Assembly (NCBI GenBank): GCA_017937385.1
Contig: JAGBDR010000009.1
Span: forward strand, 107,721-171,720
Direction of reading: 5' to 3'
DNA: 64,000 bases
Origin: Parabacteroides sp.
GTDB taxonomy: Bacteria; Bacteroidota; Bacteroidia; Bacteroidales; Tannerellaceae
Shown: positions 32,701-50,070 of the stretch, piece by piece
Layout of the letters: each line of letters begins with the position of its first letter
Position numbering within the stretch: the first letter of the stretch is position 1
Program-made: the position numbers and the translations under genes
Notes under the pieces: generated by a model
What the model was told of the DNA's origin: nothing
What the model saw: only the letters and a program-made list of their open reading frames with translations
Databases searched by the model: none

Positions 32701-34281
32701 TTCGGCAACGTCCACCTGCACGGTCCTTTCAAGGAGCTGAGTGTGGAAGGGGATGCTTTCGTCCTCGACGGCGGCTTAGGCATCGAATACCTGAACACCT
32801 ACTACCATTTCTCCGATTCGCTCCACCTGCGGCCCGATGCGATCATCGCCCGCAACGTCACCGTGCACGACAAATTCGGCAATCCGGCAAAGTTAAACCT
32901 GACGGTCAACCACAAGCATTTCAAGGATGTCAGCTTCGACATGGAGGTCCAGACGCATAACATGCTGGTGTTCGACGCGACCAAGAAACAGAATCCGCTG
33001 ATCTACGGGACCGTCTTCGGAACCGGGACCGCCTCGGTCAAAGGGAACAGCCGGTTGATCAATTTCGACATCAACATGCAGAGCAATCCCAAGACCTCCG
33101 TCAAACTCGACTTCATGAACAATTCCTCGGCGGCAGAGTATGACTTCATCACCTTTGTCGACAAAAAGAAGCTGCGGGAAATGGCGCTTACACAGCCCGC
33201 CGACTCCATCAAGCCACTTGTCTTCCAAGACACAGACGAAGGGGCGGAACTGCGCATGAACTTCCTGCTCGACATCACGCCGGATGCCGACATCGAGTTG
33301 ATTATGGACCCCGTCGCCGGCGACAAGATAGCGGGCAACTGCAACGGAAGCCTCCAGGTACAGTACGGGACGAAGAGCGACCTGCGCATGTACGGGAACA
33401 TCGGGATCGTGCAAGGCAACTACAACTTCAGCCTGCAACAGCTCATCCACAAAAACTTCAAGATACGGGACGGCAGCACCATCAGTTTCCGGGGAGATCC
33501 TTTCCAGGCAACGATGAATGTAAACGCCATCTACAACGTGACAGCCAACATACAGGACCTGGACCCCAGCCTGACCTACGAAAGCTCCCGCCGCAACACG
33601 CCGGTCAACTGCGTCCTGAAACTGGACGGCTTGCTGCGGAACCCGACGATCTCGTTCGACCTCGAACTGCCGAGTTCCAACGAAGAGCTCCAACGGCAGG
33701 TCAAAAGCTTAGTCGACACGGAAGACATGATGACCCGGCAAATCATCTATCTACTGGTCCTGAACAAATTCTATACGCCGGAATACAATGCGCAATACAA
33801 GTCGAACGATTTCAGCGCAGTGGCTTCCTCTGCCCTTTCTTCCCAGATATCCAGCATCATGAACAGCTTCACCGACAAGGTGCAGCTCGGTACCAATATC
33901 CGGACCAGCCAGGACGGTATCGAGGATACGGAGGTGGAAATGTTGTTGTCCAGCCAATTACTGAACAACCGGCTGATATTCAACGGAAACTTCGGATATA
34001 AGAACAGCACGGTGAACAACCAGAAGAACGCCTTCATCGGCGAGTTCGACCTCGAATACCTGTTGACGCCCAACGGCGATATCCGCCTGAAGGCTTACAA
34101 CCATGCCAACGATATGTATATGATCCTCAAGCAAGCCATGACCACCCAGGGCGTCGGCATCATGTACAAGAAAGACTTCACCCGCTTCTCCGAAATCTTC
34201 CGCCGCCGGAAGAAATATCCTTTGCTCTCCCCAGCTCTCCTTCCCGCTGCCACACCGGACAGCACGCAGACGAAACGTTGA
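29719..34281 (+). CDS. tamB: Translocation and assembly module TamB (DUF490); start uncertain
   Basis: About 1500 aa, N-terminal TM anchor, beta-taco repeats, C-terminal SQLLNNRLIFNGN...FDLEYLLT..G..RLKAYN. Confidence 0.85.
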   Translation: MCKLTKSIRDIVVVLRLNYRKDIKGLKYIIITLFALFWIFYATPALLLRIPYVQRQVAHIATAELSERLGVPVRIGNVDIEWFNRLVLEDLYLEDESGALLFDANHVSAGFEILPLLNGKIVFSTVRLFGFSVHLNKETPADKLNLQFVIDAFARKDTVKRQPAIDLRFNSILIRRGNFRYDVKNAAATPGKFNAKHIDIRNISAKISMKSFNKDSLNANIKKMSFDEASGFSLNKLSLNIVANKDSATIRNFEIKLPETDLRIDRAHIHTQEATDSSSWLDHSPVELNIVPSQICLKDLSAFVPAFRNFSETIELSAEASGYINQIDLKRLTLKYSDKMQFTGMMEMKGITHPEEAYIFGQVNRMYITTEGISGLVNNFNKRPVKLPDAIVRLGTVNFTGEISGFFDNLVAFGKFSSAIGSVQTDLIFGSDKEKEIAAYLKGHLSTSTLHVDQLFPDGNPYGTAQLDVTLDARRPVNGRFSGDIQANINEFEYKGYPYENIRLSGNFKENGFNGVLDIDDPNGKLYAEGLFLHEGRNSRFNFTSRLDHFRPDSLHLTNQYEAPDISCSLNADFTGNNIDNLEGSITLDSLSFKTAPDSFFLKKFKVEATGHSLDRHLAITSDILNGEVTGAYSFTTIVPSFMQTLKGYVPALINVTQKKQKVMENNFSLLLTVENTEALSNTLKLPVTLLSQGRITGHYNNQYNRFRLEAYLPKFNIGKSMFESGYLTCDNPEDRVNLRLKATHYNTKGLRNYMDLQADAKDNRIQTHVGWANNKERLFKADLSASTLFIEEEQEKGPAKLRTEISLDKSPLVLNDSTWYIAPSTITLADGKVGIRDFSVSNGTEYLHINGTVSPDPADTLLLDLKQVELSYIFDILNIPVLQFAGKATGTFNITDLYGSRILNTDLEIRDFAFNQVPLGRLNLFSEWDDQQQGILMLGSIYKNDTTWTDVSGYIYPVGKNAGLSLFFDANDIDIAFLHPFVEHIAKDMQGRGFGNVHLHGPFKELSVEGDAFVLDGGLGIEYLNTYYHFSDSLHLRPDAIIARNVTVHDKFGNPAKLNLTVNHKHFKDVSFDMEVQTHNMLVFDATKKQNPLIYGTVFGTGTASVKGNSRLINFDINMQSNPKTSVKLDFMNNSSAAEYDFITFVDKKKLREMALTQPADSIKPLVFQDTDEGAELRMNFLLDITPDADIELIMDPVAGDKIAGNCNGSLQVQYGTKSDLRMYGNIGIVQGNYNFSLQQLIHKNFKIRDGSTISFRGDPFQATMNVNAIYNVTANIQDLDPSLTYESSRRNTPVNCVLKLDGLLRNPTISFDLELPSSNEELQRQVKSLVDTEDMMTRQIIYLLVLNKFYTPEYNAQYKSNDFSAVASSALSSQISSIMNSFTDKVQLGTNIRTSQDGIEDTEVEMLLSSQLLNNRLIFNGNFGYKNSTVNNQKNAFIGEFDLEYLLTPNGDIRLKAYNHANDMYMILKQAMTTQGVGIMYKKDFTRFSEIFRRRKKYPLLSPALLPAATPDSTQTKR

Positions 34282-34558
34282 CCTACCGGGATGTGTCGAT
34301 ATAAGCAACCTTACATATCTTTCATCGACAATCCTTTGCACGAAAGGGAATAGCCTTTCAACTCACCTGTCGCACGCAGGAAAACGGTGGCCATTTCCGA
34401 AACCGCCGTTTCGGAAACAGCGGTTTCGGAACGGTAAAAGTAATGCTATTTTCGGCAAAACAGGCAATTGATACGGATATATTCAACAAATAATCTCCAA
34501 TTTCCTATTTTAGCACACCGACCAGACAGATTTCATCACATAACAAGTATACGGAAAT

Positions 34559-35503
34559 ATGGAACAAAAGAAACAGAGAAAAAAGTCTTCCCTGTCATTA
34601 CTCGAATATGCCCGGAAGCGTATCGCATGGAAAGTACAACTCAACAAGACGAGCACGGCGGAACTCTACCGGGCAACGGTCAACCACTTCCTGAAATTCA
34701 CCGGCAACGAGCGGTTCCGGCTGGAAGAGCTGAACCGGACGTTGGTAGCCGACTTCGCCGCCTACCTGCAAAACAAAGGGCTGGCGACCAACACGGTCAA
34801 CTCCTACCTGAGCAGCCTCCGTGCCATCTACAACGCCGCGTGCTACGACCGATCGATCTTCCCGGCTGACCATCCGTTCAGAGGATTGAAGCTCAAACGG
34901 GAACCGACCGTGAAGCGTGCGGTCCCCGTCGCATTTATCCAAAAATTGGCGAACCTCCGGACAACCGATTCCCCCAAACAGGAACTGGCGACTGATATGG
35001 CCCTGTTCAGTTTCTTAGCGTGCGGAATGCCGTTTATCGACATGGCGCATCTGACGGCAAGTAACCTCCGGAACGGCGAGCTGGTCTACAACCGCCGGAA
35101 GACCGGGGCGCAAGTCCGCATGGAGATCACCCCCGTCATGTGGCAGATCATCCGCAAATATACGCCCACCGACGGGGAACGGGAGTTCCTTTTCCCGATC
35201 CTCCCGACACGCACACCGACTCATTCGCAGTACAAACACTGTCTGGCTTCGCACAACAAGCACCTGAAAGTGATCGGAAACAAACTTTGCATTCCCATCC
35301 TCTTCACCTCCTACGTGACGCGCCACAGCTGGGCATCCGCCGCCCTGCAATCCGGAATCTCCGTGGCAGTCATCAGCCAGGGACTGGGACATAGTTCGGA
35401 AAAAACGACGCGCTATTACCTGAGTGAACTGGATGTATCGGAATTAACAAAGGCAAACCGCATCATTTCGGCTCCGATCAATTGCCTGTTGGGAGAAGGA
35501 TAG
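34559..35503 (+). CDS. Tyrosine site-specific recombinase (phage-integrase family, SAM-like N-domain), probable invertase
   Basis: NTVNSYL.SLRAIYN, Y.RRKTG, YVTRHSWAS, ISQGLGHSSEKTTRYY. Confidence 0.92.
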   Translation: MEQKKQRKKSSLSLLEYARKRIAWKVQLNKTSTAELYRATVNHFLKFTGNERFRLEELNRTLVADFAAYLQNKGLATNTVNSYLSSLRAIYNAACYDRSIFPADHPFRGLKLKREPTVKRAVPVAFIQKLANLRTTDSPKQELATDMALFSFLACGMPFIDMAHLTASNLRNGELVYNRRKTGAQVRMEITPVMWQIIRKYTPTDGEREFLFPILPTRTPTHSQYKHCLASHNKHLKVIGNKLCIPILFTSYVTRHSWASAALQSGISVAVISQGLGHSSEKTTRYYLSELDVSELTKANRIISAPINCLLGEG

Positions 35504-35786
35504 GACGGGATTCGGTCCTTATTTATGAAATAAGGTATATAGATTATAACAAACTTGTTATCATTATATTAGATTGATTCAAGTTTGAGATAACGGATAT
35601 ATTTCCTTATATCGGAAGGCAAATATAGCGAAAAAAGGAAAGGATGGAGACTTTTTTAATGAAAAAAAGACCTTTCCATCTCTTTATTACCTGAAACCTT
35701 ACATTATCTATATAAAACCGGGATGTTCCTTGTTTCAGGAACAGGGCCTGGTTACACGTCTTTTGCAAAAAGGTAACACGCCTTTA

Positions 35787-35812
35787 TAGAGACGCAACCT
35801 GCTGCGTCTCTA
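35787..35812. repeat. REP-like palindrome
   Basis: TAGAGACGCA-ACCTGC-TGCGTCTCTA. Confidence 0.8.
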
Positions 35813-35884
35813 CCTGTATTGAGGACGTCCTATTTTCCAATCGTCCGTCCTTTTTTTAATGTCCTATCGACATTTATGTGCTAC

Positions 35885-35912
35885 GTAGAGACGCATGGCC
35901 ATGCGTCTCTAC
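35885..35912. repeat. Perfect 28-bp palindrome (REP-like)
   Basis: GTAGAGACGCATGG|CCATGCGTCTCTAC. Confidence 0.9.
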
Positions 35913-35961
35913 AACCCCGTCACACCTTATTTCATAAATAAGTTACTACCCAAAGTATCGG

Positions 35962-37059
35962 ATGGAAGAGAAGAAAAACATAGAGAAACAACACGTCTCC
36001 ATTGACATTTCTTACGGAAAATATTCGCAAGCGGTCCTGTTGTATGCCACCACCGACCTGACCGGCAAACAGATTGCCGAGCAATGCGGCGTCAGCCTGT
36101 CCGGATTCAGGATCTACTTGAGGCGGCACTACCGCGAACTGGTGCTCAAACGGAACAATGCCGAACCGGAGGAAAGCGCCTGCTTCACGAAGGACGGCAA
36201 ACTGCGTGGCAAACGGGGACAGACACCCGCCGCCCACCAAAAATACAAAGAGGCCATCGAAGCCTGCGACAACTTCGACTACATCGAATACAACGTCTCA
36301 CAAATCGCCCGCATGTTCGGACATGACGGGACCGCCTTGGGGAACCAGTTGAAACTGCACTACCCGGAGATCCTCGAACGGCGCGAAAAGACACGGATAC
36401 GCCTCGGACTCGCGGACAATTTCCTGCGGGGCGTCCATCCCAACAGCGTGAAAGAATATGCCGTCGCCGTCGAACTCTACCGCACCACCGACCGCAACCT
36501 GCCCTCCATCGCCGATGAATGCGAAGTCTCGCTCGCCGGGCTCAGCCAGCATTTGCGCTTCTACCACAAAGACTTGGTGAAGCAGAAAAGCGCCCTCTAC
36601 CGGCAAGCGGCAGGCAGCCGCCAGCCGGGCAAGCCGGGTGGCAACGGACGCGCCTCCGAACCCTCCTTCGGCACGTACGAAAAATACCGCGAGTCGATCG
36701 AGCTGTACCGCACGACCGGCCTGACCGCCAAGGAGGTCGTCGCCCGTACCGGCGTCACGCTCGGAGGCTTCTGCAACCACCTGCGCAAATGGCACCGCGA
36801 CCTGATGCTCGAACGGCGGGGCGGTACTCCCGAAGCCGATTGCAACCGGTGCGACCTCGACCTGAGCCAAAGCAAACGCTACCTCAAATCGACCGCCGCC
36901 AAATATGCCCCCGTCATCGAAAGCCTCAAAGCCCGTCCGCGGCCGGTCGCCCACGCAGCCGCCGAGTTCGGCGTGGACCCCGACAACTTCCGACGCTACC
37001 TGCGGACGCACGAGCCGGAACTGGCGGAGCGGTTCGGCAAGAAAAAGAAAATCAAATAA
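35962..37059 (+). CDS. Hypothetical protein with five tandem HTH-like repeats
   Basis: Repeated KY..A..LY.TT.L....IA...GV....F..YLR.H...L motif. Confidence 0.8.
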   Translation: MEEKKNIEKQHVSIDISYGKYSQAVLLYATTDLTGKQIAEQCGVSLSGFRIYLRRHYRELVLKRNNAEPEESACFTKDGKLRGKRGQTPAAHQKYKEAIEACDNFDYIEYNVSQIARMFGHDGTALGNQLKLHYPEILERREKTRIRLGLADNFLRGVHPNSVKEYAVAVELYRTTDRNLPSIADECEVSLAGLSQHLRFYHKDLVKQKSALYRQAAGSRQPGKPGGNGRASEPSFGTYEKYRESIELYRTTGLTAKEVVARTGVTLGGFCNHLRKWHRDLMLERRGGTPEADCNRCDLDLSQSKRYLKSTAAKYAPVIESLKARPRPVAHAAAEFGVDPDNFRRYLRTHEPELAERFGKKKKIK

Positions 37060-37078
37060 CAATCAAATTATAACAAGT

Positions 37079-37678
37079 ATGATACGAAAACTGATCATCA
37101 TGATGTTTCTGTTAGCTGTCCCCCTGGCGTTCTACGCACAGGACAACAGATTGGCCGGACAAAGAGGTTCGGTCGTCGGGATCAAGACCAACCTCCCTTA
37201 CTGGGGAGTGCTGGGTACTTTCAACGCAGGCGTGGAGTTCCGCTTGGCACGCCGCTGGAGTTTAGACATCGAAGCCGGCCTGAACCCGTTCGACGGGAAG
37301 AAAGACGACGACAGCTATGGCAAATCGCTCAAACACCTGCGCCTGCACCCCGAACTGCGCTACTGGTTCTGCGAAACGGGCTACAGGCATTTCGTCGGGC
37401 TGCACGTCCCCTACCTATTATATAATGTATCGGACATCCGGATGTTCGGCCTCGAAGGCAAACGCCGCCAAGGCTGGGGCACGGGCGTGGGGCTGAGCTA
37501 CGGCTACTCGTTCCTGCTCTCGAAGCACTGGAACTTGGAAGCGACCGTCGGCGCGGGCTACCTCTACCTCGAGTCGGAGAAATACCCCTGCGCCAACTGC
37601 GGACGCCGGAAAGGATACGAGAAAAAGCACTACGTCGGTCCCACCCAGGCGGCCGTCAACCTGATTTACCAATTCTAA
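37079..37678 (+). CDS. DUF3575 outer-membrane beta-barrel protein
   Basis: IKTNLPYW...TFNAGVEF, PELRYWFCE, EATVGAGY, YVGPTQAAVNLIYQF. Confidence 0.85.
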   Translation: MIRKLIIMMFLLAVPLAFYAQDNRLAGQRGSVVGIKTNLPYWGVLGTFNAGVEFRLARRWSLDIEAGLNPFDGKKDDDSYGKSLKHLRLHPELRYWFCETGYRHFVGLHVPYLLYNVSDIRMFGLEGKRRQGWGTGVGLSYGYSFLLSKHWNLEATVGAGYLYLESEKYPCANCGRRKGYEKKHYVGPTQAAVNLIYQF

Positions 37679-37691
37679 TCGTCGCAGCCTT

Positions 37692-39125
37692 ATGAAAATC
37701 AAGAAACAGATACTTCTCGCGGCAAGCCTGATGGCTGTTGCCGCCCTGCAAGCACAAGAAATCAAAGTCAAAGACAAGCGGGTCGAAAAATCGGACGGCA
37801 CATTGATGATCGGGATGACGCTCGACTTCAGCGAAGTGGACGTCCCCGCGGGCCGCAGCGTCGTCTGCACGCCGGTCATCGCCTCGGGCGACAGCATCCG
37901 CCCGCTGGCCCCCGTCATCCTCAACGGCCGCAACCGCCAGATCCTGTATGAACGCACGGGACGCACCTACGCCACCCACGGCGAATACGCCCTGCGCCGC
38001 ACGAACGGCCACGAGCAGACCTTCGACTACACCGCCCACACCCCGCTGGCGCCCTGGATGAAACGCGCCGAAGTCGCCCTCGTCACCGACCTCTGCGGTT
38101 GCGGCTGGGAGGCGTTGCAGAACAACCGTTCGCCGCTCTTCCCGATCCGCCTCGCCGAACCGGTCGTGCTCCGTCCGCAGCTCGCCTACCGCACCCCGGT
38201 GGCCGAAGCGGTCAAAGCCCGCGCCGTCGAAGGCAAAGCGTTCCTCGACTTCCCCGTCAACCGCACGGAGATCCACCCCGACTACCGCAACAACCCGCGT
38301 GAACTGGAGGCCATCCGCGCCACCATCGCCTCAGTCAAGGACGACCCCTACGCCACCATCACCGAAGTCTGGATCAAAGGCTTCGCCTCGCCCGAAGGAC
38401 GTTACACGGCCAACGCCTACTTGGCGGAAAACCGCGCCAAGGCCCTCAGCGACTACGTGAAGAAGCTCTACCGTTTCGACGCCGCCACCGCCTTCACCAT
38501 CGAGTCGGAACCGGAAGACTGGCAAGGATTAGAAAAGCAACTCTCGGAGAGCAACCTCCCCGACAAGGCGGAACTCCTCGCCATCGTCCGCGACCCGGAA
38601 CCCGCCGACCTCGACAAGAAAGAAGGAAAACTCAAAAACCTGAACGGAGGAAGCTCCTATAAGATATTGTTGCGCGATGTCTATCCCGCCCTGCGCCATT
38701 CGGACTACGCCGTGCGCTACACCATCCGCAACTTCACTGTTGAAGAGGCAAAAGAACTGCTCTACACCGACCCGAAGAAGCTGAGCCTGAACGAAATGTT
38801 CCAGGTGGCACAGACCTACGAGCCGGGTAGCAAACAGTTCAGCGAAGTATTCGAAATTGCCGTTCGCCTGTACCCCGACGACCCCGTGTCGAACCTGAAT
38901 GCAGCCAACACCGCCATTCAGAACGGGCAGTTGGAACAGGCGAAGCGCCACCTGGCGAAAGCCGGGACATCGGCCGAGAAGCAACTGGCGGAAGCTGCTG
39001 TTGCCATGCTGGAAGGCAAACTCGACTGGGCTGAACAGCTATTGGCACCCCTGAAGGACAACGCGGAGGTGGCAGCAGCTGCGACTGGCAACCTGGAGCA
39101 AATCCGGTTGAAGAGAGAAGAATAA
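37692..39125 (+). CDS. DUF3868 / OmpA-like periplasmic protein with C-terminal TPR
   Basis: Signal peptide, FLDFPVN...YRNNPREL, GFASPEG....N..LAENRA, YPALR, A.NLNAA. Confidence 0.85.
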   Translation: MKIKKQILLAASLMAVAALQAQEIKVKDKRVEKSDGTLMIGMTLDFSEVDVPAGRSVVCTPVIASGDSIRPLAPVILNGRNRQILYERTGRTYATHGEYALRRTNGHEQTFDYTAHTPLAPWMKRAEVALVTDLCGCGWEALQNNRSPLFPIRLAEPVVLRPQLAYRTPVAEAVKARAVEGKAFLDFPVNRTEIHPDYRNNPRELEAIRATIASVKDDPYATITEVWIKGFASPEGRYTANAYLAENRAKALSDYVKKLYRFDAATAFTIESEPEDWQGLEKQLSESNLPDKAELLAIVRDPEPADLDKKEGKLKNLNGGSSYKILLRDVYPALRHSDYAVRYTIRNFTVEEAKELLYTDPKKLSLNEMFQVAQTYEPGSKQFSEVFEIAVRLYPDDPVSNLNAANTAIQNGQLEQAKRHLAKAGTSAEKQLAEAAVAMLEGKLDWAEQLLAPLKDNAEVAAAATGNLEQIRLKREE

Positions 39126-39149
39126 ATCAATTAAAAAAAAGAATCGACT

Positions 39150-39596
39150 ATGGCTATCAAGTATAAATTAGTACAAAGAAAAGACTTTTCAAAAGACGCG
39201 CCGAAAGACGCAAAGAAGTATTTCGCGCAAATCGTATCCAACGGTACGGTCACGTTCGACGAACTGTGTGAAGGGATTGCAGAAGAATCCGCATTGACCA
39301 GTGGCGACGTGAAAGGCATGATCGACCGGTTGACCAAAGCATTGGTCCGCCACCTGAAAGCAGGCCGCAACGTGCAGATCGGCGAGTTAGGCAATTTCCG
39401 CCCGACGCTCGGAAGCAAAGGCGCCGCCTCTGAAAAAGAGTTCGACGCCGGCACCATGATGAAGAAACCGGGCATGATGTTCACACCCGGCAAAGCGTTG
39501 CAGAACATGCGCACGCAAATCACCTTCGAACGCATCAGCAAGAAAGAGGAAACGACAACAGGAGGAGGAGAAGAAGAAAGGCCGGGCGAGCTCTAA
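39150..39596 (+). CDS. Bacteroidales HU-related DNA-binding protein
   Basis: VTFDELC..IA..S.LT.GDVKG....L...L..G..VQIGELGNFRP; acidic Gly-rich tail GGGEEERPGEL. Confidence 0.88.
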   Translation: MAIKYKLVQRKDFSKDAPKDAKKYFAQIVSNGTVTFDELCEGIAEESALTSGDVKGMIDRLTKALVRHLKAGRNVQIGELGNFRPTLGSKGAASEKEFDAGTMMKKPGMMFTPGKALQNMRTQITFERISKKEETTTGGGEEERPGEL

Positions 39597-39611
39597 ACAG
39601 CCCCACCGGAG

Positions 39612-39726
39612 AGCTGCCGCAGCCGTTGTCCAAGATCTGCTGCAGCTCTCCTCCGACATCTGCTGCAGCTCCCGAAAGAGATCTGCAGCAGCTCTCGGAA
39701 GGCATCTGCAGCAGCTCTCGGAAGAT
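39612..39726. repeat. 23-bp-period array of ATCTGC(T/A)GCAGCTC
   Basis: Cores at 39635, 39658, 39681, 39704, plus a degenerate copy at 39612. Confidence 0.9.
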
Positions 39727-39768
39727 ACTTACGATAGCCATAAAACAAGATGAAATAAACGACAGAAT

Positions 39769-41355
39769 ATGATAAACGACAAGATAAAAACAGTGGGCCT
39801 ACTGGCACTCTTCGCACTCCTGCCGGCTTGTGCGGATGACGCGCCATTCGACAAGGGCCACGAGCCGGAGAGCGGAACACACGAGTACTACCTCCGTCTG
39901 ACACTCCGGCACCCGGAAGCCGGCCTCCCGACCCGGTCGACCCCGACCGGAGGCGAACCAGGCGACGGACACGAGCCGGGGCAAGACCACGAGACACGCA
40001 TCGACGACCTGACGTTGCTCTTCTACCGGGGCACGGACGGCGTGAACTCGGACGCCTCGACCCCGATCGACAAAATCATCTACCTCGACCGCGACGCGAT
40101 GGAGGGCGACAACCGTACCGAACCGGTGCCGGTGAACCTGCCGGCAGGCGAATACGACCTGCTCACGGTGGCCAACAGCGGCGACCTGCGCCCGCAATTG
40201 CAGGGCAAGACCCTCGGAGGCGTGCGCGACTACCTGTTGCAACAGGCATGGACGGAAGACGAAGAGGGCCGGTGCTCACGCTTCGTCATGACCTCCGACG
40301 GACATACCCCCGACCGCGTCAGCATCTGCAACCTCAACACGACCGACAACCCCGCCTCGGCAACCGTCGAAGTGGAACGCCTCGCGGCACGTATCGACTA
40401 CCGCACGCGGCACGAAACCTACACGGTCGATGATGCCACCTACGGACATGCCGCCGCCTCGATCACCGGCGCCGTCGTGCTCAACAAGATGAAGGCCGGC
40501 TCCTTCCTGCTGAAACGCACCGCCGCGCCTGACAACGGGCGGCTGACGGCGGCTTCGGCTCTCACCTACCTCGGCGACGAACGGCCGGCGGAAGGAGGCG
40601 TGCAGCGCAACTACGTGGCGGACCCCTGGAGCCTGCAGAAAAAAGCCGCGCCCGTCAACGCCGCACTGGCAAAGCTCTACGACAACTACTATACGTCGTT
40701 CGGCCCCTCGCAAGCCGCCTGGGAAGCCGCCATCCGGACCGGCACGGCGGCCGACGGCTGGCAACGGCTCGACTACACGCAGGAAAACACCATGAGCCGC
40801 GAGGCGCAATCGGACGCCTACCGAACGATGGTGGTCTTCCAGGCACGCTACACCCCCGAAGGGTATGAACCGGGACAGACCTTCTACCGCGTGAAAGGCC
40901 GCATCTTCCCGACCCGCGCCGAAGCGGAAGCGGCGGCCCAGGGGACAGGCGCGTTGGTGCGCGAATACCACGACGGGCTGTGCTACTACGTCTGGCGCGT
41001 GCGCCACTCCAACGACGGCAACGACGCCACGCAGGGCATCATGGAATATGCCATCGTGCGCAACAACATCTACCGCCTCCTGGTCGCCTCGATCGACGGA
41101 TTAGGCGATGAAGTCCCGTTCCCCGAACCGGACGGGAAAGACCCGGACCCGGTCGACCCTGACGACCCCGATCCCGATGAACCGGATCCCGACGAGCCTG
41201 ACCCCGACAATCCGGACCCGGACAACCCCGATCCGGACGAACCTGATCCGGACAACCCGGACCCCGATAATCCCGACCCCGAAGAACCGCCTATCACAAT
41301 CGTCGTGACGGTGGAAGAATGGACCCAATTAAACGAACATGACATTTATCTATAA
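39769..41355 (+). CDS. Type V pilus major subunit, Mfa1-like lipoprotein
   Basis: Lipobox LLPAC, PTR|S maturation-like site, VERLAARID, YAIVRNNIYRL.V..I.GLG, Pro/Asp-rich linker, terminal VVTVEEW strand. Confidence 0.88.
   Translation: MINDKIKTVGLLALFALLPACADDAPFDKGHEPESGTHEYYLRLTLRHPEAGLPTRSTPTGGEPGDGHEPGQDHETRIDDLTLLFYRGTDGVNSDASTPIDKIIYLDRDAMEGDNRTEPVPVNLPAGEYDLLTVANSGDLRPQLQGKTLGGVRDYLLQQAWTEDEEGRCSRFVMTSDGHTPDRVSICNLNTTDNPASATVEVERLAARIDYRTRHETYTVDDATYGHAAASITGAVVLNKMKAGSFLLKRTAAPDNGRLTAASALTYLGDERPAEGGVQRNYVADPWSLQKKAAPVNAALAKLYDNYYTSFGPSQAAWEAAIRTGTAADGWQRLDYTQENTMSREAQSDAYRTMVVFQARYTPEGYEPGQTFYRVKGRIFPTRAEAEAAAQGTGALVREYHDGLCYYVWRVRHSNDGNDATQGIMEYAIVRNNIYRLLVASIDGLGDEVPFPEPDGKDPDPVDPDDPDPDEPDPDEPDPDNPDPDNPDPDEPDPDNPDPDNPDPEEPPITIVVTVEEWTQLNEHDIYL
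41140..41289 (+). repeat. Degenerate 15-bp coding repeat encoding PD(N/E)PD units
   Basis: DPDPVDPDDPDPDEPDPDEPDPDNPDPDNPDPDEPDPDNPDPDNPDPEEPP. Confidence 0.9.
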
Positions 41356-41367
41356 ACAGACAGCAAA

Positions 41368-42378
41368 ATGAAAACATACAGACACTATATCGCCGGAGCG
41401 TTCGCCGCGCTCCTCTCGTCCGGCCTCGCCTCTTGCGACTACATCCACGACAAGGACCTGCAGCCGTGCGACCATTACCTGCGTTTCACGTACACCTATA
41501 ATATGAAGTTTGCCGACGCTTTCACCCACGAGCTGACCAACCAGGCCACCGAGAAGACGACCGGCCTGTACATCTTCGACCGCGAAGGGAAGTTCATCCG
41601 CTCCGAAAGCTATCCCGCCGGGGCGTTGAAAGAGGGGCGCGTCCGCCTCGACCTCGAACCGGGCGACTACAAGCTGATGGCGTGGACGGGACTGAACGAA
41701 ACAGACTATGCCTACCCGGCTCCCGCCACCGGCGAGACAATCGGCCAGTGGCAGGTGGCAACCAAGGCTCAAAACGGGACGGTATCGCGCGAACTGTCGG
41801 GACTTTTCCAAGGAACGCTCGACCTCACCATTCCGGAAGGCAAGGCAACCGACTATGAACTGCCGCTCGTGAAGCAGACCAACAAAATCCGTTTCGTCCT
41901 GATCGACGCCAACCGCGGGACGGGATTGAACGCCGACGACTTCACCATCCGCGCCGTGACACGCTGCGGCAAGCTCGACGCGCAGGGAGAGCCGGCAGGG
42001 ACGGACACCTATGTCTGGACCCCCTACCTGCAAACCGTCCGGACTGTCACCGACGCCAAAGAGACAGCAACTAAGACGCAAGCCGTCGTTGCGGAGCTGA
42101 ACACGCTACGCCTGATCGACGGCACGGAAACCGCCTTGCAGCTCTCGCACAAGGAGGAAACGACGCCCTTCTTCAACGTCAGCCTGACCGACTTCCTGTT
42201 GCTCACGAAGATGGAGTCCCACCAGATAGGCGCACAAGAATACCTTGACCGGCAGGACGAATATACGGTCGTGATCTACCTCGACCTCGCCGGCGGCAGA
42301 GCGCACTGCCTCGAAGTCATCGTAAACGACTGGACAGTCCGCCTCGACGAGTTGAACTTAAACAGGAAAGGGGCTTGA
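41368..42378 (+). CDS. FimB/Mfa2-family pilus anchor lipoprotein
   Basis: Lipobox LASC-D, C...LRFTYTYNM..ADAF, LYIFD..G.F, C-terminal VIVNDW. Confidence 0.88.
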   Translation: MKTYRHYIAGAFAALLSSGLASCDYIHDKDLQPCDHYLRFTYTYNMKFADAFTHELTNQATEKTTGLYIFDREGKFIRSESYPAGALKEGRVRLDLEPGDYKLMAWTGLNETDYAYPAPATGETIGQWQVATKAQNGTVSRELSGLFQGTLDLTIPEGKATDYELPLVKQTNKIRFVLIDANRGTGLNADDFTIRAVTRCGKLDAQGEPAGTDTYVWTPYLQTVRTVTDAKETATKTQAVVAELNTLRLIDGTETALQLSHKEETTPFFNVSLTDFLLLTKMESHQIGAQEYLDRQDEYTVVIYLDLAGGRAHCLEVIVNDWTVRLDELNLNRKGA

Positions 42379-42379
42379 C

Positions 42380-43663
42380 ATGACGAACAGACGATTCGAC
42401 ACAACCGTACGCCTCGCCCTCTTCGCCCTCCTCGCAGGGCTGTTGGCAGGTTGCAGCGCAGACGAAACCCCTGCCCGTCCCGAAACCGTCACCGCCACCC
42501 TCTCCCTCCGCACCGAAGCGGGCGACCGGCTGACAAAGGCGGTAAACGAGAGCGACATCAACACCTTGGATGTCTACATCCTGAACGGGACAACGGTGGA
42601 ACAACATCTGACGAAAGACAACTTTACAAACAACAACGGGACAGCCACCGTAGAACTGACAGCCGGTACGAAAACCATCCGTGCAGTGGCAAACGCCGAC
42701 AATTCATACGAGGAGACGGCTCCGGCAAACACAGCGGTCAATGCTTTGGGTGATTGGTTGGACAATGATGCCACCGCCATGCCGATGTCCACTACCTTAG
42801 ACACGACTTGGAATGTCTCGACCACGCCAACCGAATATGAAGTCCGCCTCAACCGCATGGTGGCAAAGATGAATGTAAAGGTGGTGGACGAACGGGCAAA
42901 TCAAACTCCGGCAGTTTCTTCCGTCACCATCGACGGCTTGCTGGCAGGGATGACGAACTTGTACAGAAGCGGGTATGGGACGATTGATTTGCCTACCAAT
43001 GTGACAGCAACAGATTGGTCTTGGGAGAATCTCACATTCAATACGACAACAGCAGAAGCGACCCATGAAGATTTCTACCTTCACGAAAACAAAGGCACAT
43101 TCCCCGTCACCGTGAAGTTAGGAGATAATACCGAACGTACAGGTAGCTTCACCGCCACGATCCCCCGTAACCATATCTTCCCGCTGGTCATCCATCTCAC
43201 GGATTACAGCCTTTCGTTCAAGGTCACGTATCAACTGGCGGCTATCGGCACGTTGCCGGTCAGCAAAGGTCCTTCAAACACATATAATATTGAACTGCCT
43301 GAAGGATGTACCTACGAGGTTGAGGTTACGGCACAAAACAATTCAGGAACCGGCTGGAACAACGCTTCGTGGACATGGGGTACTCCGGGAACCGGCAATG
43401 CGTCCATTACGGTCAATCAAACGGATTGGCCGGATGGCACAGCCATTTCCGACGCAGCTCCCACCTTTACCTTCACCGGAAAGGTTTCCGCACAACACGT
43501 CAGCGGCACTTGCGATATTCCCGTCACTTTGACGGACAATGGGAAAACGATAAACTTCACTATCAAAATGTCTACCAGTGAACTAAACGACAGTGAACTG
43601 AATAAAACGACAACGAAATCCGTTCACCCGGCAAGTCCTCGCCAGATAGACATTGATTTATAA
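42380..43663 (+). CDS. Minor/tip type V pilin lipoprotein
   Basis: Lipobox LAGC, LTK|A site, L.RMVAK, IPRNHI pilin motif. Confidence 0.75.
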   Translation: MTNRRFDTTVRLALFALLAGLLAGCSADETPARPETVTATLSLRTEAGDRLTKAVNESDINTLDVYILNGTTVEQHLTKDNFTNNNGTATVELTAGTKTIRAVANADNSYEETAPANTAVNALGDWLDNDATAMPMSTTLDTTWNVSTTPTEYEVRLNRMVAKMNVKVVDERANQTPAVSSVTIDGLLAGMTNLYRSGYGTIDLPTNVTATDWSWENLTFNTTTAEATHEDFYLHENKGTFPVTVKLGDNTERTGSFTATIPRNHIFPLVIHLTDYSLSFKVTYQLAAIGTLPVSKGPSNTYNIELPEGCTYEVEVTAQNNSGTGWNNASWTWGTPGTGNASITVNQTDWPDGTAISDAAPTFTFTGKVSAQHVSGTCDIPVTLTDNGKTINFTIKMSTSELNDSELNKTTTKSVHPASPRQIDIDL

Positions 43664-43688
43664 TCAACTAAAATTAGGAATTAGAGCA

Positions 43689-46600
43689 ATGAAACATAGA
43701 AATCTATTCATACAATTCTTACGGAGCATTCCCTTGCTCCTCATCCTCCTGCTCTTCAATGGGGGCGCACTTAGGGCGCAAAACAATCCACAATATGCGA
43801 CAGGAGACCAAATGAAGGTAACCAGCGATATAGAGACTCATTTGTGGTTTTTTCCGGACGGGACACGAATTAGTGTAGCTCAAGAGGGAACGGGAAATAT
43901 ATCTCACATCATAAGCAGGGATCATAATGGAGAATCTTGGCAATATTCAGGTTCCGAAAGTGTAATGATAACCATCGAACGTACAGATGATGATACAAAA
44001 CCGTTGTCCGTACTTGTGGTAGAGTATGGAGATCAAACTCCCCTACCAGCTCAGCAAATCACTGTTAAATGGGACAATAATGAGACACAAATATTCAGTA
44101 ATAATATAGAAGAAAGGACTGTTTATCTACGATTAAAAGAACCTATTACATCTAAGAAGATCGAACTTACATTTCAACCAAATAGTACCCAATTTGATAT
44201 TAAGAAAATCTACTCTTTACCAAGCATCCAGCACAAAGCTGCCAAATGGCACAAAATGCGTAGTAAAACCACGACTTATGGAGATACTTTCGATAAAACG
44301 GAGTTTTTCGAACTTACGGGAGACGATTATGTAAACCGCCAAGTACAAGCAACTCACGTTATGACCGACACAATCTATATGCGTAGAGGAACAAGAGTGA
44401 ACTTGACATTGCCAAATAAACTCGATGATAATCAACTAACTCAAAACTCCATGAACAGCTACATCCGTTGGTACAGCTATCGGACAGGGACAACCTATTT
44501 GACGGAACATAGAACACAGAATGGGACGTTTCCTAATGTGGGTGTATATGACTTATTGACTCCAGCAAATTCAAACGAAGGTGCTTCTGATGCCATTACA
44601 CGCTTTGATAATGGATATCTCTTACTTCCATTTACAACTAAAAGTTTGTTTGCCGGTATGAACTTTTACTTTCCTACAGATGATGAATTTAAAGCCTGGT
44701 TTCCCTCTTTTGAAAATAGTTCTAAAATAGATAACAATTTGTATGTTGTCGCTTGTGATGTTTCGCAATATGCAGATTATGGAACAGACGAAACTATAAC
44801 AGGAACCCAACTTGCAGAGAAATTTAAAAACAGTGATTATTGTGAACCGACTTTGACCCACCGCCTCATTTATTATATCAAAGCCGTAGAAGAAGAAGAG
44901 CCGCCATACGAGGAATACACAATCAATATGCCGGCCACTCGTGTCCGTAGCTATACAACCGAACTTGTAACCCTTTCAAAGATGGCCCGCAATTATTTAT
45001 CTCAAAACGGAACAGAAGAGGCGGCTACACTGGTTGCGACTATTGACGCTAATGATAATTCTGCGGGTATTGAGTTATGTAACCAACACGATTATGACGG
45101 AGGAAAACAAGATCAACTAATACTCACCGGAACAGATCGAAACATTACATTCCGTTATCCACGTGTGAATGATGATCAAACCAGAACAGTTATTCCTGAA
45201 ACAGATAACGGTCAACCGCTAACTGCGACAATTGTTGTAAGGCATCAAAATTCAGATAAAGTAGTCGCCAAGTTCCACCTCAACTTCGTCAGAGGAGGAC
45301 GTCTGCTTACACAGAGTATGGTAAAACTGTTAGACGGCGAAGAAGTAAACGGCCAAACATTAGATCGGTATAATACAACCCAATGGGCTACCCTCGGCTA
45401 TCGTACCCCTAAGAAAATTGATGAAGATCCCAACAATGAAGTACTGACGGAATTGACAATGGATTATGACGAATCGGAGGATATTGAATCAGATAATCAT
45501 ATAAAAGGTTATTACCCCTACCCATTAGCTTGGAATTCGAGCAGTTATGGATTTTATGACGGAACAAAGAAAAATAGCGGGTTTAACGGAAACAAAAACT
45601 GTGCGGAATGGGGTAATTATGCAATTACAACAAAGTATGTAGAATGTGGCGGTGAAGGAGAATGGGAAAAAAGTAATATCACAAGGCCCAACACAACAGG
45701 CGCCTATGAACCCAAAGGTTACCACCTCTATATCGATGCCTCCGACCGGCCAGGAACAATTTTCCGTGCTCCCTTCCGTAAGAAGTTATGTTCAAATGCC
45801 CAACTGACATTCTCGGCATGGGTAAAGGTAGCCCGTGAAGGCATAGCAGACAATGCCGGTATGCTATTAACCATCATGGGAAAAACAGTTGATGAAAAAG
45901 GCTATGATAAATACGTACCGGTCTACCGTTACCTGACAGGGCAGATTCCTGCCACTTATGTAGCATCAGCCAATTTGCCGGGATTTAGCACGGAGCCGAA
46001 ATCCAACGAATGGTTCCATGTTTATTTCACATTCATGAATGGTAATATAGACTACGAGGACTATTACTTGCAAGTCGATAACTACTCGGCTTCCACGGCA
46101 GGTGCCGATATGTACCTTGATGACGTACGGGTCTATATGGCGAAACCCAAAGCCCTTGTCAAGCAAAAGAAAATCACGTGTAATGAATTTACATTGATGA
46201 CTTTGGCGTTGGATTGGGAAACATTGCTTGCACGTATCAATGCTTCAGAAGAGGAAACAGACGAAACAATAACAGCCTCAATAGACTTCTGCTTTGTGGA
46301 CAGCCTCGATTATGCCAAAGCAATCTATGTGGATCATCTACCGACAGCAGAAGCAATCCAAGCATCTTGGATGCCTATTACAACAGATAAAACAAGGCAT
46401 GTCGGTCACTTGTCTTTCAACTTGAATTTCTCAAAGAATGACGAATATCCTGAATCCGAAGACAAATCTGTATTCTCGGAGCATAGTAACCAATTTTACC
46501 GGACAGGGACAAAGGAGGATGGCAACCGCCAACTCATCGGTGATTTCAATTCGGCACTGCAACAGAACCGCCGGTATATGATTCTGATCCGCGAAAATCA

Positions 46601-49600
46601 AGGGAATAGAGATGATGAAAATGTAGATGGTTTCACAGACGCTTACGATGATTGCTCCATATCGGCCTCATTCTCCGTGGAGAGCCAAAACCAAGTGCTT
46701 ATCAACGGCGAAGTATTGAAACCGGAAAAAGAACAAGAATACTGCGTCGGACAAACCATCGAACTGGCAATGCAGTTGAGGGTTGAAGATAAAGACGAGA
46801 ACGGAAATACGATATATAAACCTTACGAAGGATCTACCGTTTACTACGATTGGTATTTCAATTCGCCAAGGGAAGGTACGGAAGAAGATTTTGAAACACA
46901 GCAATCGGAATATGACAATGTTACCGTAAAAGAAGCATTGGTACTACTCCGGGAACACTATCCCAACGTTACAGCAGAAGCATATACCGACACGGACGGA
47001 ACAACAAAATATCGGTTGCCCTCAGATGTTACAGCCAAGGATGATTTTACAAATAACCATATCGACCTAATCAACGCTAAGCTGAACGAACCGGGACGCG
47101 ATGCCGCTGTAAACCGTAGGTTGATCTTACGCCGGGAGAGACTGACAGTCCGCCTTTTGGATAACGATGGACGTAGTTTGAAAATCATTCCTATTCCAAT
47201 AACAGAAAATGAAAAAGCTCTTATTTGTGCAGAGCCTGTCGATCTGCGCATGACACCTTTCGGAAGTGCGCCCAGCGTGCAGCCTGGATTCGAGTATATG
47301 AACTATCCGGAAGAGACGTATAATCCGGCTATGCGTATCGGGTTGAAGCATATAGAAAACTCAACACAAACAAACCAGATTACCGTCAACCTCCGTAACA
47401 TCAAATATGCACGAGAGTTAGATGAATATGGAGCCAATAAACCCACCCATGTAGGTTTGATGTCCAGCGGTATGGATGAATCAGATGTCCTTAATGACAT
47501 TTACCTGATCGGTTCTACCGACCCGGCTTATAAGGATTTGTTTACCGAGTCGAATTCCCCATACACCTACGTAATCGGAAAGGTTCATTCTTTTTATGCC
47601 CAACCGCGTAAATTGGGAGATGAAATTAATGGGACAAATGTCATGAAAATCCACTTTAAGGATGGTGAACAGATGACCGAAGGCGACAAGGACCTCAAAT
47701 TCGACCCCAAGGAAGGGTACGAATATACCTTTATGGTCCGGTATGAAGAACATTACAATACGGGTACCCGAGCCGATGACAATGAGAATAGCGACGACGA
47801 CAAATTACCCGTTCCCTGTTATGGCAACTTCATCATGACCATGAAAGTCGTCCCCGAATACCTGGTTTGGCAAGGCACAACAACAGGCCTCAACTGGAAC
47901 GACGATTCGCAATGGAAACGGGCGACGAATGAGGATATACATGCCAATAATATTATTCCCAATTATGGGAACAATTACAATGATAACCCCGGCTACGTTC
48001 CCATGCGGTTCTCGAAGATCATCATCCCAAGAGATGGCAAAGTGGAATTGTATAAGGCAGGATTCGAGGGTGATAAAACAAAATACCGTAATGTTGAGTG
48101 GAAAACTGAAATCAATGACGATGCACACAAACACATGGATCCGCCGGCAACCGATGAATATCGCAAACACCCGATCCAATACGATATGATGGTATATGGG
48201 AAAAAGGGCGATGATGGCAATTACACCGATATGCACACCGACCCCTACACCGTAAACCGTTGCGAAGAGGTGCATTTCGAACCGGGAGCCGAGATGATGC
48301 ACGCCGAACTGTTGTCGTATAAAAACCAGCTTTCATCAGATGACATAACCTATCAAAAAGCCTGGGTAGAATACGAATTGGAGAAAGGCCGCTGGTATGC
48401 CCTCTCCTCTCCTTTGCAAAACGTCTTCTCCGGTGATTTCTATACCGGCAAGGACGGCAAGGAGGCTTCAGAATATTTCACACCTATTCAATGGAATAAC
48501 AACAACAGCCGTCTGAACCCGACCGTCTATCAACGCGGATGGAAAGGGAGTAGCGCAACGATGGTGGGTACCGGTACAGACGCTACCGGAGAACGTGCCA
48601 TTGCCGGCAACTGGAGTGCCCTATATAATAAGGTAGACGAAAACTATGGTGAAAACGGCTTCTCGCTTCGGGTACAAGATATTGAAGGTACTGGTAGTAA
48701 AGCCTTGTTCCGTCTCCCGAAAGCGGATGTATCCTATACATATAATAGTAATGACGGAAATACTTCATCAGGAACGATAAGTCGTGAAAACAGCCACAAG
48801 TTAAGAATCGATAATCTGAATGATAATAATAACGGCATGACCGTCCCACTTGCAGCAAACGACAACAACCCGTACTATTTAGTCGGTAACCCGTTCATGG
48901 CACAGTTGAAGATGGAAGAGTTCTTCAATAAGAATACTTCACTTGCAAAAACCTATTGGTTGGTGGATGAAAACAACCAACAAATAGCAGCAAACGGAAA
49001 CAACGACGCATGGACTGCCAACGGCAAGGATGGCAACAACGGAACGGTTCCGCCTTTAACCTCTTTCTTTGTAAAGAAGGCGGATAATGCAACTACTGTA
49101 CCAAATGAGGTCACTTTCACCGCCGATATGCAAACACTGGATACAGAAGCGACTACAGCAAGCGAACCCAATACCCCGGCCCTCTACCTGACCATCACAA
49201 CGGCCGACGGACGGCAAAGCCACGCTTCGATCGCCTACGATGCAGCTTCAGACAAAGGCTATCGCACGGATGAAGACGCCGAATTGTTCTTAGATTCCAA
49301 CTTGGGCAACGTGCCGATGGTCTATACCGTAGCCGGCACAATGGCAGCAAGCGTCAACCGCACCTCCGACCTCTACGACATCCCGGTAGGCGTGTACGGA
49401 GGCGACAAGGCTTCCAACGTGGTACTCTCGTTCGACGGTATGGAATCGTTCGCCAGCGTCAGCCTTTACGATGCCGTCCGCAAAATCGAGACGCCGTTGC
49501 ACGAAGGCAAAAAGATCGAAATCCCTGCCGCCACAGCCGGTCGTTACTTCCTCCGCGCCGGTATGCCGACCGCCAACGAAACAATCGCCCGCAATGCGTT

Positions 49601-49814
49601 CCGTATCTATACGGTAGGCAGAGAGCAAGTCATCGTGACCGCGGCCAACGCCCCGTTGAAGACCATTCTCGTCCATACGGTCAGCGGCAAGCAGGTACGC
49701 AGCATCCAAGCCGACGGAATGCAGTGGCAATTCCGCCTGCCCACAGGCCTCTACCTCGTCACCGCCATTGACAAAGAAGGCCTTCAGGAAACAGAAAAGA
49801 TTGTCGTGAAGTAA
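43689..49814 (+). CDS. Large secreted surface protein/adhesin with probable T9SS C-terminal sorting domain
   Basis: Sec signal MKHRNLF...LRAQ; YLVWQG..NWND..QW and YLVGNPF motifs; C-terminal ...VSGKQVR....LPTGLYLV...EKIVVK. Confidence 0.8.
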   Translation: MKHRNLFIQFLRSIPLLLILLLFNGGALRAQNNPQYATGDQMKVTSDIETHLWFFPDGTRISVAQEGTGNISHIISRDHNGESWQYSGSESVMITIERTDDDTKPLSVLVVEYGDQTPLPAQQITVKWDNNETQIFSNNIEERTVYLRLKEPITSKKIELTFQPNSTQFDIKKIYSLPSIQHKAAKWHKMRSKTTTYGDTFDKTEFFELTGDDYVNRQVQATHVMTDTIYMRRGTRVNLTLPNKLDDNQLTQNSMNSYIRWYSYRTGTTYLTEHRTQNGTFPNVGVYDLLTPANSNEGASDAITRFDNGYLLLPFTTKSLFAGMNFYFPTDDEFKAWFPSFENSSKIDNNLYVVACDVSQYADYGTDETITGTQLAEKFKNSDYCEPTLTHRLIYYIKAVEEEEPPYEEYTINMPATRVRSYTTELVTLSKMARNYLSQNGTEEAATLVATIDANDNSAGIELCNQHDYDGGKQDQLILTGTDRNITFRYPRVNDDQTRTVIPETDNGQPLTATIVVRHQNSDKVVAKFHLNFVRGGRLLTQSMVKLLDGEEVNGQTLDRYNTTQWATLGYRTPKKIDEDPNNEVLTELTMDYDESEDIESDNHIKGYYPYPLAWNSSSYGFYDGTKKNSGFNGNKNCAEWGNYAITTKYVECGGEGEWEKSNITRPNTTGAYEPKGYHLYIDASDRPGTIFRAPFRKKLCSNAQLTFSAWVKVAREGIADNAGMLLTIMGKTVDEKGYDKYVPVYRYLTGQIPATYVASANLPGFSTEPKSNEWFHVYFTFMNGNIDYEDYYLQVDNYSASTAGADMYLDDVRVYMAKPKALVKQKKITCNEFTLMTLALDWETLLARINASEEETDETITASIDFCFVDSLDYAKAIYVDHLPTAEAIQASWMPITTDKTRHVGHLSFNLNFSKNDEYPESEDKSVFSEHSNQFYRTGTKEDGNRQLIGDFNSALQQNRRYMILIRENQGNRDDENVDGFTDAYDDCSISASFSVESQNQVLINGEVLKPEKEQEYCVGQTIELAMQLRVEDKDENGNTIYKPYEGSTVYYDWYFNSPREGTEEDFETQQSEYDNVTVKEALVLLREHYPNVTAEAYTDTDGTTKYRLPSDVTAKDDFTNNHIDLINAKLNEPGRDAAVNRRLILRRERLTVRLLDNDGRSLKIIPIPITENEKALICAEPVDLRMTPFGSAPSVQPGFEYMNYPEETYNPAMRIGLKHIENSTQTNQITVNLRNIKYARELDEYGANKPTHVGLMSSGMDESDVLNDIYLIGSTDPAYKDLFTESNSPYTYVIGKVHSFYAQPRKLGDEINGTNVMKIHFKDGEQMTEGDKDLKFDPKEGYEYTFMVRYEEHYNTGTRADDNENSDDDKLPVPCYGNFIMTMKVVPEYLVWQGTTTGLNWNDDSQWKRATNEDIHANNIIPNYGNNYNDNPGYVPMRFSKIIIPRDGKVELYKAGFEGDKTKYRNVEWKTEINDDAHKHMDPPATDEYRKHPIQYDMMVYGKKGDDGNYTDMHTDPYTVNRCEEVHFEPGAEMMHAELLSYKNQLSSDDITYQKAWVEYELEKGRWYALSSPLQNVFSGDFYTGKDGKEASEYFTPIQWNNNNSRLNPTVYQRGWKGSSATMVGTGTDATGERAIAGNWSALYNKVDENYGENGFSLRVQDIEGTGSKALFRLPKADVSYTYNSNDGNTSSGTISRENSHKLRIDNLNDNNNGMTVPLAANDNNPYYLVGNPFMAQLKMEEFFNKNTSLAKTYWLVDENNQQIAANGNNDAWTANGKDGNNGTVPPLTSFFVKKADNATTVPNEVTFTADMQTLDTEATTASEPNTPALYLTITTADGRQSHASIAYDAASDKGYRTDEDAELFLDSNLGNVPMVYTVAGTMAASVNRTSDLYDIPVGVYGGDKASNVVLSFDGMESFASVSLYDAVRKIETPLHEGKKIEIPAATAGRYFLRAGMPTANETIARNAFRIYTVGREQVIVTAANAPLKTILVHTVSGKQVRSIQADGMQWQFRLPTGLYLVTAIDKEGLQETEKIVVK

Positions 49815-50015: not shown

Positions 50016-50070
50016 ACAGAAGACCGCAGATTCATTATTGCAAACCAATAAAAAATCTGCGGTCTTCTGT
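50016..50070 (-). terminator. 17-bp-stem hairpin downstream of the AspT/YidE gene
   Basis: ACAGAAGACCGCAGATT (50016-50032) / AATCTGCGGTCTTCTGT (50054-50070). Confidence 0.65.

Follow-up and report, generated by a model that had tools for sequence, protein, structure and literature searches.

The question raised by this locus is whether a short non-coding segment between a recombinase gene and a pilus operon is a promoter that can be turned around, and so acts as a switch for the pili. The locus lies in a stretch of 64,000 nucleotides (nt), referred to here as the window, from a metagenome-assembled genome (MAG) of an uncultured Parabacteroides (GCA_017937385.1, contig JAGBDR010000009.1, positions 107,721 to 171,720). 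The original prediction, made from the letters of the window, held that a tyrosine site-specific recombinase (Tsr) inverts the adjacent segment and switches an operon of helix-turn-helix (HTH), DUF3575, DUF3868, HU and pilus genes, and that the operon is OFF in this assembly. Comparison with homologous loci indicates that segment 35518-35942 is very probably a promoter-bearing invertible element (inverton) which switches the type V pilus operon and is OFF here. This reading is supported by the adjacent Tsr, a conserved core sequence in the repeats, a conserved promoter box position and the finding of both orientations in homologous loci with the same core. From these we infer that this copy flips, that its box is an active promoter and that all 14 kb downstream form one transcription unit.

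The structural claims of the prediction were all found in the sequence. The recombinase-adjacent segment is 425 bp long and is flanked by a perfect 19-bp inverted repeat, whose arms (35518-35536 and 35924-35942, 19 nt each) are 100% complementary and lie 387 nt apart. The recombinase stop codon ends at 35503, leaving 14 nt before the left arm, and 19 nt separate the right arm from the first ATG of the operon (35962). Both arms hold a 7-3-7 dyad, CTTATTT-ATG-AAATAAG, so that the sole difference between a site and its own reverse complement is the central ATG/CAT. Among perfect inverted repeats of at least 19 nt with arms more than 100 nt apart, this pair stands alone in the whole window, the remaining inverted-repeat pairs being hairpins or heptamer-repeat elements. 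The proposed identity of the neighbouring gene was upheld by matches to both Phage_int_SAM_5 and Phage_integrase, and the RHSW (Arg-II/His), GH and RYY tyrosine motifs of its product align with the XerC-like protein 4a8e.

The repeats contain a 17-bp core, CTTATTTATGAAATAAG, which was found exactly in 20 of 79 Parabacteroides species, nearly always as pairs that follow a recombinase homologue at a distance of about 400 bp from one another. None of the 104 genomes from the family's 18 other genera contained it, and a reversed control pattern gave no matches in the core search. At more than 20 loci in other Parabacteroides, a homologue of the window Tsr (44-77% amino acid (aa) identity) ends about 15-40 nt before a first core, which matches the 17-bp sequence exactly or with one mismatch, and a second, inverted core follows 146-473 nt beyond the first. 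The segment lies between the same genes at the same place across species, and its interior has mostly diverged beyond alignment while the core stays conserved. The first operon gene varies within this family of switches, being an HTH, DUF3575 or HU gene depending on the locus, so that inversion does not require the HTH gene. A full-text literature search for the core sequence returned no relevant paper.

Changes of orientation are visible among the homologous loci, where segments are inverted between collinear flanks with breakpoints at the cores. The flanks of genomes G007 and G006 are 96.6% identical and collinear, while the segment between the cores is inverted and 82% identical. Inverted segments also distinguish two paralogues of one MAG (L054 and L055), as well as loci L211 and L011 from L051 and L038. 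Two species offer assemblies whose flanks and segment agree at 100% identity and whose sole difference is the side on which an extra 34-bp unit is found. This unit consists of a core and a 17-nt spacer and is placed forward on the operon side or inverted on the recombinase side; its position differs between L045, L046 and L047 versus L049 in the P0009 species, and between L211, L261 and L262 versus L260 and L263 in a mouse-gut Parabacteroides. Such a swap at 100% identity is hard to explain otherwise than by two inversions, of the outer core pair and then of the inner pair. Three contigs (L050, L175 and L263) break exactly at a core. As far as can be judged by comparing sequences, the Parabacteroides family with this core clearly inverts.

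Tandem extra copies of the 17-bp core are common, at a spacing of 23-35 bp, and give rise to three- or four-armed switches. Three tandem cores are present in G045 (L012), and a 2+2 arrangement was seen in G005, G078 and L026. The promoter segment keeps its majority orientation where the extra unit swaps sides within a species. On one metagenome contig (L200, VOFJ01003635.1) the promoter/leader end is found at both segment ends, with one copy inverted; this contig could combine ON and OFF molecules in a chimeric assembly, or could represent a natural variant with two promoters.

The promoter box was also as predicted: TATATTTG, on the minus strand at 35620-35627 and facing away from the operon, is the sole perfect match of the segment to the Bacteroidales pattern TAnnTTTG, and the plus strand holds no perfect match from 29763 to 47452. 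Of 20 homologous loci, 14 have a perfect TAnnTTTG that faces outward 42-127 nt from one end of the segment; it points toward the Tsr in 12 of these and toward the operon in two. Box distances are mirrored in homologous pairs of loci (42 nt in L030 and 43 nt in L026; 84 nt in both L038 and L011). A scan with the sigma-70 consensus, which is unsuited to Bacteroidales, and for intrinsic terminators gave counts near shuffle expectation.

In the mechanism that we propose, recombination between the two cores would be carried out by the adjacent Tsr. The module is present once more in the window's genome, on contig C90 (G000:C90), and the Tsr of this copy would probably act on the window's cores too, given that the two sets of cores are identical. 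With the segment as assembled, the box would fire antisense into the 3' end of the recombinase gene, leaving the operon OFF. After inversion, it would lie on the plus strand at about 35833-35840, about 85 nt inside the right core, and would read through this core into the HTH, DUF3575, DUF3868, HU, Mfa1, Mfa2, tip and 2053-aa genes (ON), giving a leader of roughly 110-120 nt. The expected outcome would be phase-variable type V pili. A single 14-kb transcript is suggested by the gene spacing and by precedent in Phocaeicola vulgatus.

The C90 module comprises recombinase, switch, HTH, DUF3575, DUF3868 and HU genes and is 84% identical to the window at the nucleotide level over 5 kb, with 93% identity in the switch and 77% between the two recombinases. 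Downstream it continues with a different fimbrillin gene and then an Mfa2 gene. On its operon side the C90 switch carries one additional tandem core, and the core is confined to these two loci in the genome. The names of its proteins assign the genome to Parabacteroides, and loci identical to that of the window are present in metagenome scaffolds. In L042, from the same species, the first 308 nt of the HTH gene match the window at only 95.8% identity, as against 100% for the recombinase flank and 99.2% for the switch interior; gene conversion with the C90 paralogue is a possible source of this divergence.

Several observations weigh against the proposed switch. None of the five same-species assemblies (the window and L040-L043, the latter retrieved by exact protein look-ups) is in the ON orientation, all being OFF, as is the C90 copy, and an exact search of metagenome contigs for the right junction of the window gave no matches. 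The 64-kb window contains 35 matches to TAnnTTTG versus 30.6 expected, so that one box alone is not significant, and the -33 region upstream of it is imperfect, reading TTTCC and not the TTTG found about 17-20 nt upstream of the box in most relatives (promoter alignment). The conserved box position, for which about 13% is expected from shuffles, has a binomial tail of 1.6e-7, a value that is only indicative and overstates independence because the compared loci are related. In the HMMER alignment, the Arg-I position of the Tsr aligns to GMP and not to GLR. Finally, a terminator or a second promoter could be hidden in the 172 nt, with their palindrome array, that precede the major pilin gene, so that the pilin genes are only putatively under the control of the switch.

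As for the recombinase, GMPF is shared by the window Tsr and P. vulgatus BVU2677 where XerC-like proteins have the Arg-I motif GLR, and BVU2677 inverts promoters when reconstituted in E. coli (PMC12940148). Pairwise alignments place a proline at the position of the first catalytic arginine of XerC-like proteins both in the window Tsr (residues ~155-160, GMPFID) and at L139:10948-11931. The small Tsr subfamily with this proline includes the experimentally active BVU2677-type protein.

The shared orientation of the five assemblies and the paralogue, together with the OFF state of 12 of the 14 related loci, would also be expected of a fossil, a descendant of a working inverton whose copy here is permanently OFF. 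We consider this very unlikely, as the 19-nt arms are perfect, the Tsr open reading frame (ORF) is intact, identical cores are kept at two paralogous loci and close relatives carry the double-inversion footprints at 100% identity. Moreover, consensus assemblies show the majority state only, and wild-type P. vulgatus is itself mostly OFF in vitro (PMC12940148). There is next to no probability left for a repeat that arose by chance, or that marks the two ends of a small non-autonomous mobile element with no relation to the recombinase. The segment does hold two copies of a dispersed palindromic repeat found 41 times in the genome, which would suit such an element; these hairpins are absent from the segments of relatives, however, while the core is exact in 20 species, always beside a Tsr homologue, and occurs at only two loci in this genome, with the segment between the same genes across species. 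Core conservation, Tsr adjacency and inverted segments with collinear flanks effectively refute this explanation.

A more serious alternative is that the segment inverts and directly controls only the module from HTH to HU, with the pilin genes driven from or gated at the 172-nt region that holds the palindrome array described below and any coupling to the pilus indirect or nil. Intergenic gaps in the operon are 1-24 nt with the exception of the 172 nt between the HU gene and Mfa1, the largest, which holds five phased palindromes whose place and period are conserved over nine loci while their sequence is not. The nucleotide homology of the two paralogous loci, too, ends precisely where the HU gene does. 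We nevertheless regard this arrangement as unlikely. The gap contains no perfect plus-strand TAnnTTTG, some related switches lead straight into DUF3575 with no HTH gene, and locking the promoter of the characterized P. vulgatus locus ON raised all six genes, including Mfa1 and Mfa2, more than 100-fold (PMC12940148). An inverton that switches the whole pilus operon is the reading that we favor.

The genes of the locus were identified by Pfam and NCBIfam profile searches, which bore out the predicted order of HTH, DUF3575, DUF3868, HU and pilus genes (Table 1). On this evidence the operon is a type V (Mfa1/FimA-type) pilus operon with a major stalk subunit and an Mfa2-type anchor, both predicted lipoproteins; the lipoboxes of the three pilins are LPAC, LASC and LAGC. 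The true start of the last ORF is probably downstream of 43653. A hairpin with 25-nt arms at 50016-50070, between the end of this ORF and a convergent gene (50109-51785), is likely a bidirectional terminator closing the operon.

Table 1. Features of the switch and pilus locus, with positions in the window unless another locus is named.
Feature	Position	Strand	Remarks
Tyrosine site-specific recombinase (Tsr), putative invertase	34559..35503	+	314 aa; Pfam Phage_int_SAM_5 2.3e-19, Phage_integrase 1.2e-9
Left inverted repeat, putative recombination site	35518..35536		17-bp core CTTATTTATGAAATAAG = 35518-35534
Segment interior	35537..35923		387 nt, AT-rich, non-coding
Bacteroidales-type -7 box TATATTTG	35620..35627	-	points at recombinase (OFF)
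Strong hairpin, dispersed palindromic repeat copy	35787..35813		promoter-distal half; fold energy -15.6 to -17.5 kcal/mol, either strand
Second hairpin, same dispersed repeat family	35885..35912		fold energy about -20 kcal/mol, either strand
Right inverted repeat	35924..35942		core 35926-35942 = reverse complement of left core
First operon gene, five tandem HTH-like repeats	35962..37059	+	365 aa; precomputed Pfam DUF7317 / Sigma70_r4_2 (2e-9)
DUF3575 outer-membrane beta-barrel-like protein	37079..37678	+	signal peptide; Pfam 1.9e-61
DUF3868 protein	37692..39125	+	weak OmpA/TPR-like tail; Pfam 3.9e-8
HU-HIG / HU_rel DNA-binding paralogue	39150..39596	+	PF18291 1.4e-31; TIGR01201 108.6 bits vs cutoff 68.6
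Five palindromes (ATCTGCWGCAGCTC-like), 23-bp period	39611..39725		in 172-nt gap before major pilin gene
Mfa1-family major fimbrial subunit	39769..41355	+	NF038041 1.8e-53, 182.5 bits vs cutoff 130; Fimbrillin_C; lipobox LPAC
Mfa2-type anchor pilin	41368..42378	+	PF08842 2.6e-53; lipobox
Third pilin-like lipoprotein, FimD tip-adhesin-like N-terminus	42380..43663	+	NF052322 1.4e-10, 40.6 bits, below cutoff 170; lipobox
2053-aa ORF	43653..49814	+	signal peptide; no Pfam match; last gene on strand
Palindrome arrays	window 39611-39725; L009 4293-4377; L053 6127-6216; L055 8046-8117; L175 3796-3903		
Palindrome arrays, further loci	L140 10024-10084; L156 3114-3215; L191 13637-13737; L054 7382-7466		

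The two hairpins inside the invertible segment belong to a dispersed palindromic repeat of the form GTAGAGACGCA-N-TGCGTCTCTAC, present in 41 copies in the window's genome (G000). Two copies are likewise found within the segment of the C90 paralogue, and none were found in the segments of relatives. The hairpins have no U-tract and are thus not canonical terminators. A role as a conserved insulator was considered and dropped as a feature of the family, since they are present only in the two switches of this species.

The first operon gene encodes a protein with five KY..A...Y repeats, the first of which carries the Sigma70_r4_2 match. Its AlphaFold model shows five helical modules with predicted local distance difference test (pLDDT) scores of about 80-88, joined by flexible linkers. 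A Foldseek search of this model against the PDB gave no match with E <0.5 and only weak tandem-HTH likenesses (SelB, AraC-type, Tc3 and DUX4). The multi-HTH family (DUF7317) has more than 865 homologues in Bacteroidales. Outside the switch loci, homologues were found in glycosyltransferase-rich (capsule-type) loci (L079 and L059) and directly after DUF4906 proteins of ~1035 aa (L100, L087 and L066), with no recombinase found beside them. Homologues with five to seven repeats are embedded in surface-structure loci of Bacteroides, Phocaeicola, Prevotella, Alistipes, Butyricimonas and Muribaculaceae. This distribution, as far as gene neighborhoods can indicate, is more in keeping with a regulator of surface-structure operons that is embedded in their loci than with a recombination factor.

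An array of 3-5 palindromes with a 23-bp period lies downstream of every HU gene examined, including that of the paralogue. In eight loci with an HU-HIG gene, the array comes directly after this gene and before that of the major pilin; in L054, which showed no HU gene, it comes directly after DUF3868. Period and position are conserved across the nine loci, while the palindrome sequence changes from locus to locus and is not the same even in the two paralogues of this genome. An Rfam scan of 34000-40000 returned chance microRNA-like matches on the array and nothing else. One possibility is that the HTH and HU-HIG genes and the locus-specific 23-bp array form a regulatory layer coupled to the switch. 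The HTH and HU proteins of an ON locus could act in trans, either enforcing exclusive or hierarchical expression between the two paralogous pilus loci with their identical cores or feeding back on inversion, with the array as the determinant of locus specificity. This suggestion, which we put forward as tentative and rather doubtful, draws on analogy with UpxY/UpxZ of capsule loci or MrpJ/PapB of enterobacterial fimbriae. If true, the HTH and HU-HIG genes and the palindrome arrays could explain how several pilus loci are coordinated.

With regard to the switch itself our result is confirmatory, not surprising. It adds Parabacteroides to Bacteroides and Phocaeicola as genera with recombinase-flipped control of type V pili. 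The core CTTATTTATGAAATAAG can be searched for directly, often occurs at several loci per genome and offers a convenient marker for phase-variable surface loci in metagenomes. Public assemblies show the three- and four-armed switches in their alternative states. The multi-HTH (DUF7317) and HU-HIG genes and the 23-bp palindrome arrays represent an uncharacterized regulatory add-on.

Promoters flipped by tyrosine recombinases are known to control fimbriae in E. coli (fimS, with FimB and FimE) and in Proteus mirabilis (mrp, with MrpI). In the mrp system the fimbrial transcript also encodes an HTH regulator, MrpJ, through which other cell functions are tied to fimbrial phase. These switches are not related to that of the window in recombinase subfamily, in promoter type or in pilus type (chaperone-usher), and the likeness of the HTH gene to MrpJ would be functional only.

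Nearer systems are known from Bacteroidales. In the capsule invertons of Parabacteroides distasonis, an integrase precedes a 314-345-bp invertible promoter with a 17-bp dyad-type repeat (bioRxiv 10.1101/2024.11.17.624012). These share with the window the genus, the layout of integrase and then inverton, and the 17-bp dyad-type repeat; they differ in repeat consensus (GCTACTYRGNRAGTAGC) and in cargo, which consists of capsular polysaccharide (CPS) operons headed by NusG/UpxY-like genes and not of pilus genes (bioRxiv 10.1101/2024.11.17.624012). For Bacteroides fragilis, Tsr-controlled outer-surface, fimbria-like and outer-membrane vesicle (OMV) loci, including BF2766 IVp-I/II, are cited in PMC12940148, and a Tsr-dependent aggregative locus is mentioned in PMC12632263. 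Going by these descriptions, the likeness is that local tyrosine recombinases invert the promoters of surface-appendage operons in Bacteroidales; the differences are that a single Tsr acts on distant promoters and that the repeat family is another.

The closest characterized system is found in P. vulgatus ATCC 8482, where the Tsrs BVU2684 and BVU2677 invert promoters before Mfa1 fimbrial and exopolysaccharide (EPS) loci; the inversion was demonstrated with PCR, with a double knockout and by reconstitution in E. coli (PMC12940148). We located this region by its published repeat motif and re-annotated it as Tsr (409 aa), switch, DUF3575, DUF3868, DUF3575, DUF3868, Mfa1, Mfa2, Tsr (327 aa), switch and EPS genes. 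Much as in the proposed switch of the window, a Tsr adjoins a repeat-bounded promoter segment (~270-320 bp) that drives a DUF3575-DUF3868-...-Mfa1-Mfa2 operon, and two recombinases share one repeat type within the genome. The gene of the 327-aa Tsr directly precedes its switch and has the same orientation, as does that of the window Tsr, which is 34% identical to this BVU2677-type protein (E 2e-49) and only 23% identical to the 409-aa Tsr. In the assembly, both validated switches have a -7 box near one repeat that faces away from the operon, which supports the OFF call for the window.

The differences from P. vulgatus are equally clear. Its Mfa1-side Tsr is a 409-aa arm-domain integrase in divergent orientation. 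Its repeat motif is TACTTNNNANGTAANNGAA and that of the window is CTTATTTATGAAATAAG, which is plainly different; TACTTNNNANGTAANNGAA forms pairs in the P. vulgatus genome and, with up to one mismatch allowed, is absent from the related loci examined. The P. vulgatus locus has two DUF3575-DUF3868 pairs and neither a multi-HTH nor an HU gene, whereas the window has both of these genes, and the palindrome array after the HU gene is a feature of the window. The P. vulgatus locus L114, which contains a multi-HTH homologue, was ruled out as the characterized switch on account of a different context and the lack of the repeat motif. The original prediction had stated that this combination of genes could be matched to no characterized switch. 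That statement stands insofar as the known locus is without multi-HTH and HU genes, and falls insofar as a recombinase-flipped promoter on a DUF3575-DUF3868-Mfa1-Mfa2 operon has been characterized in P. vulgatus (PMC12940148). What is new here is the repeat sequence, with its genus-restricted core, and the apparently co-transcribed HTH and HU genes, while the kind of switch is one already characterized experimentally in a neighboring family.

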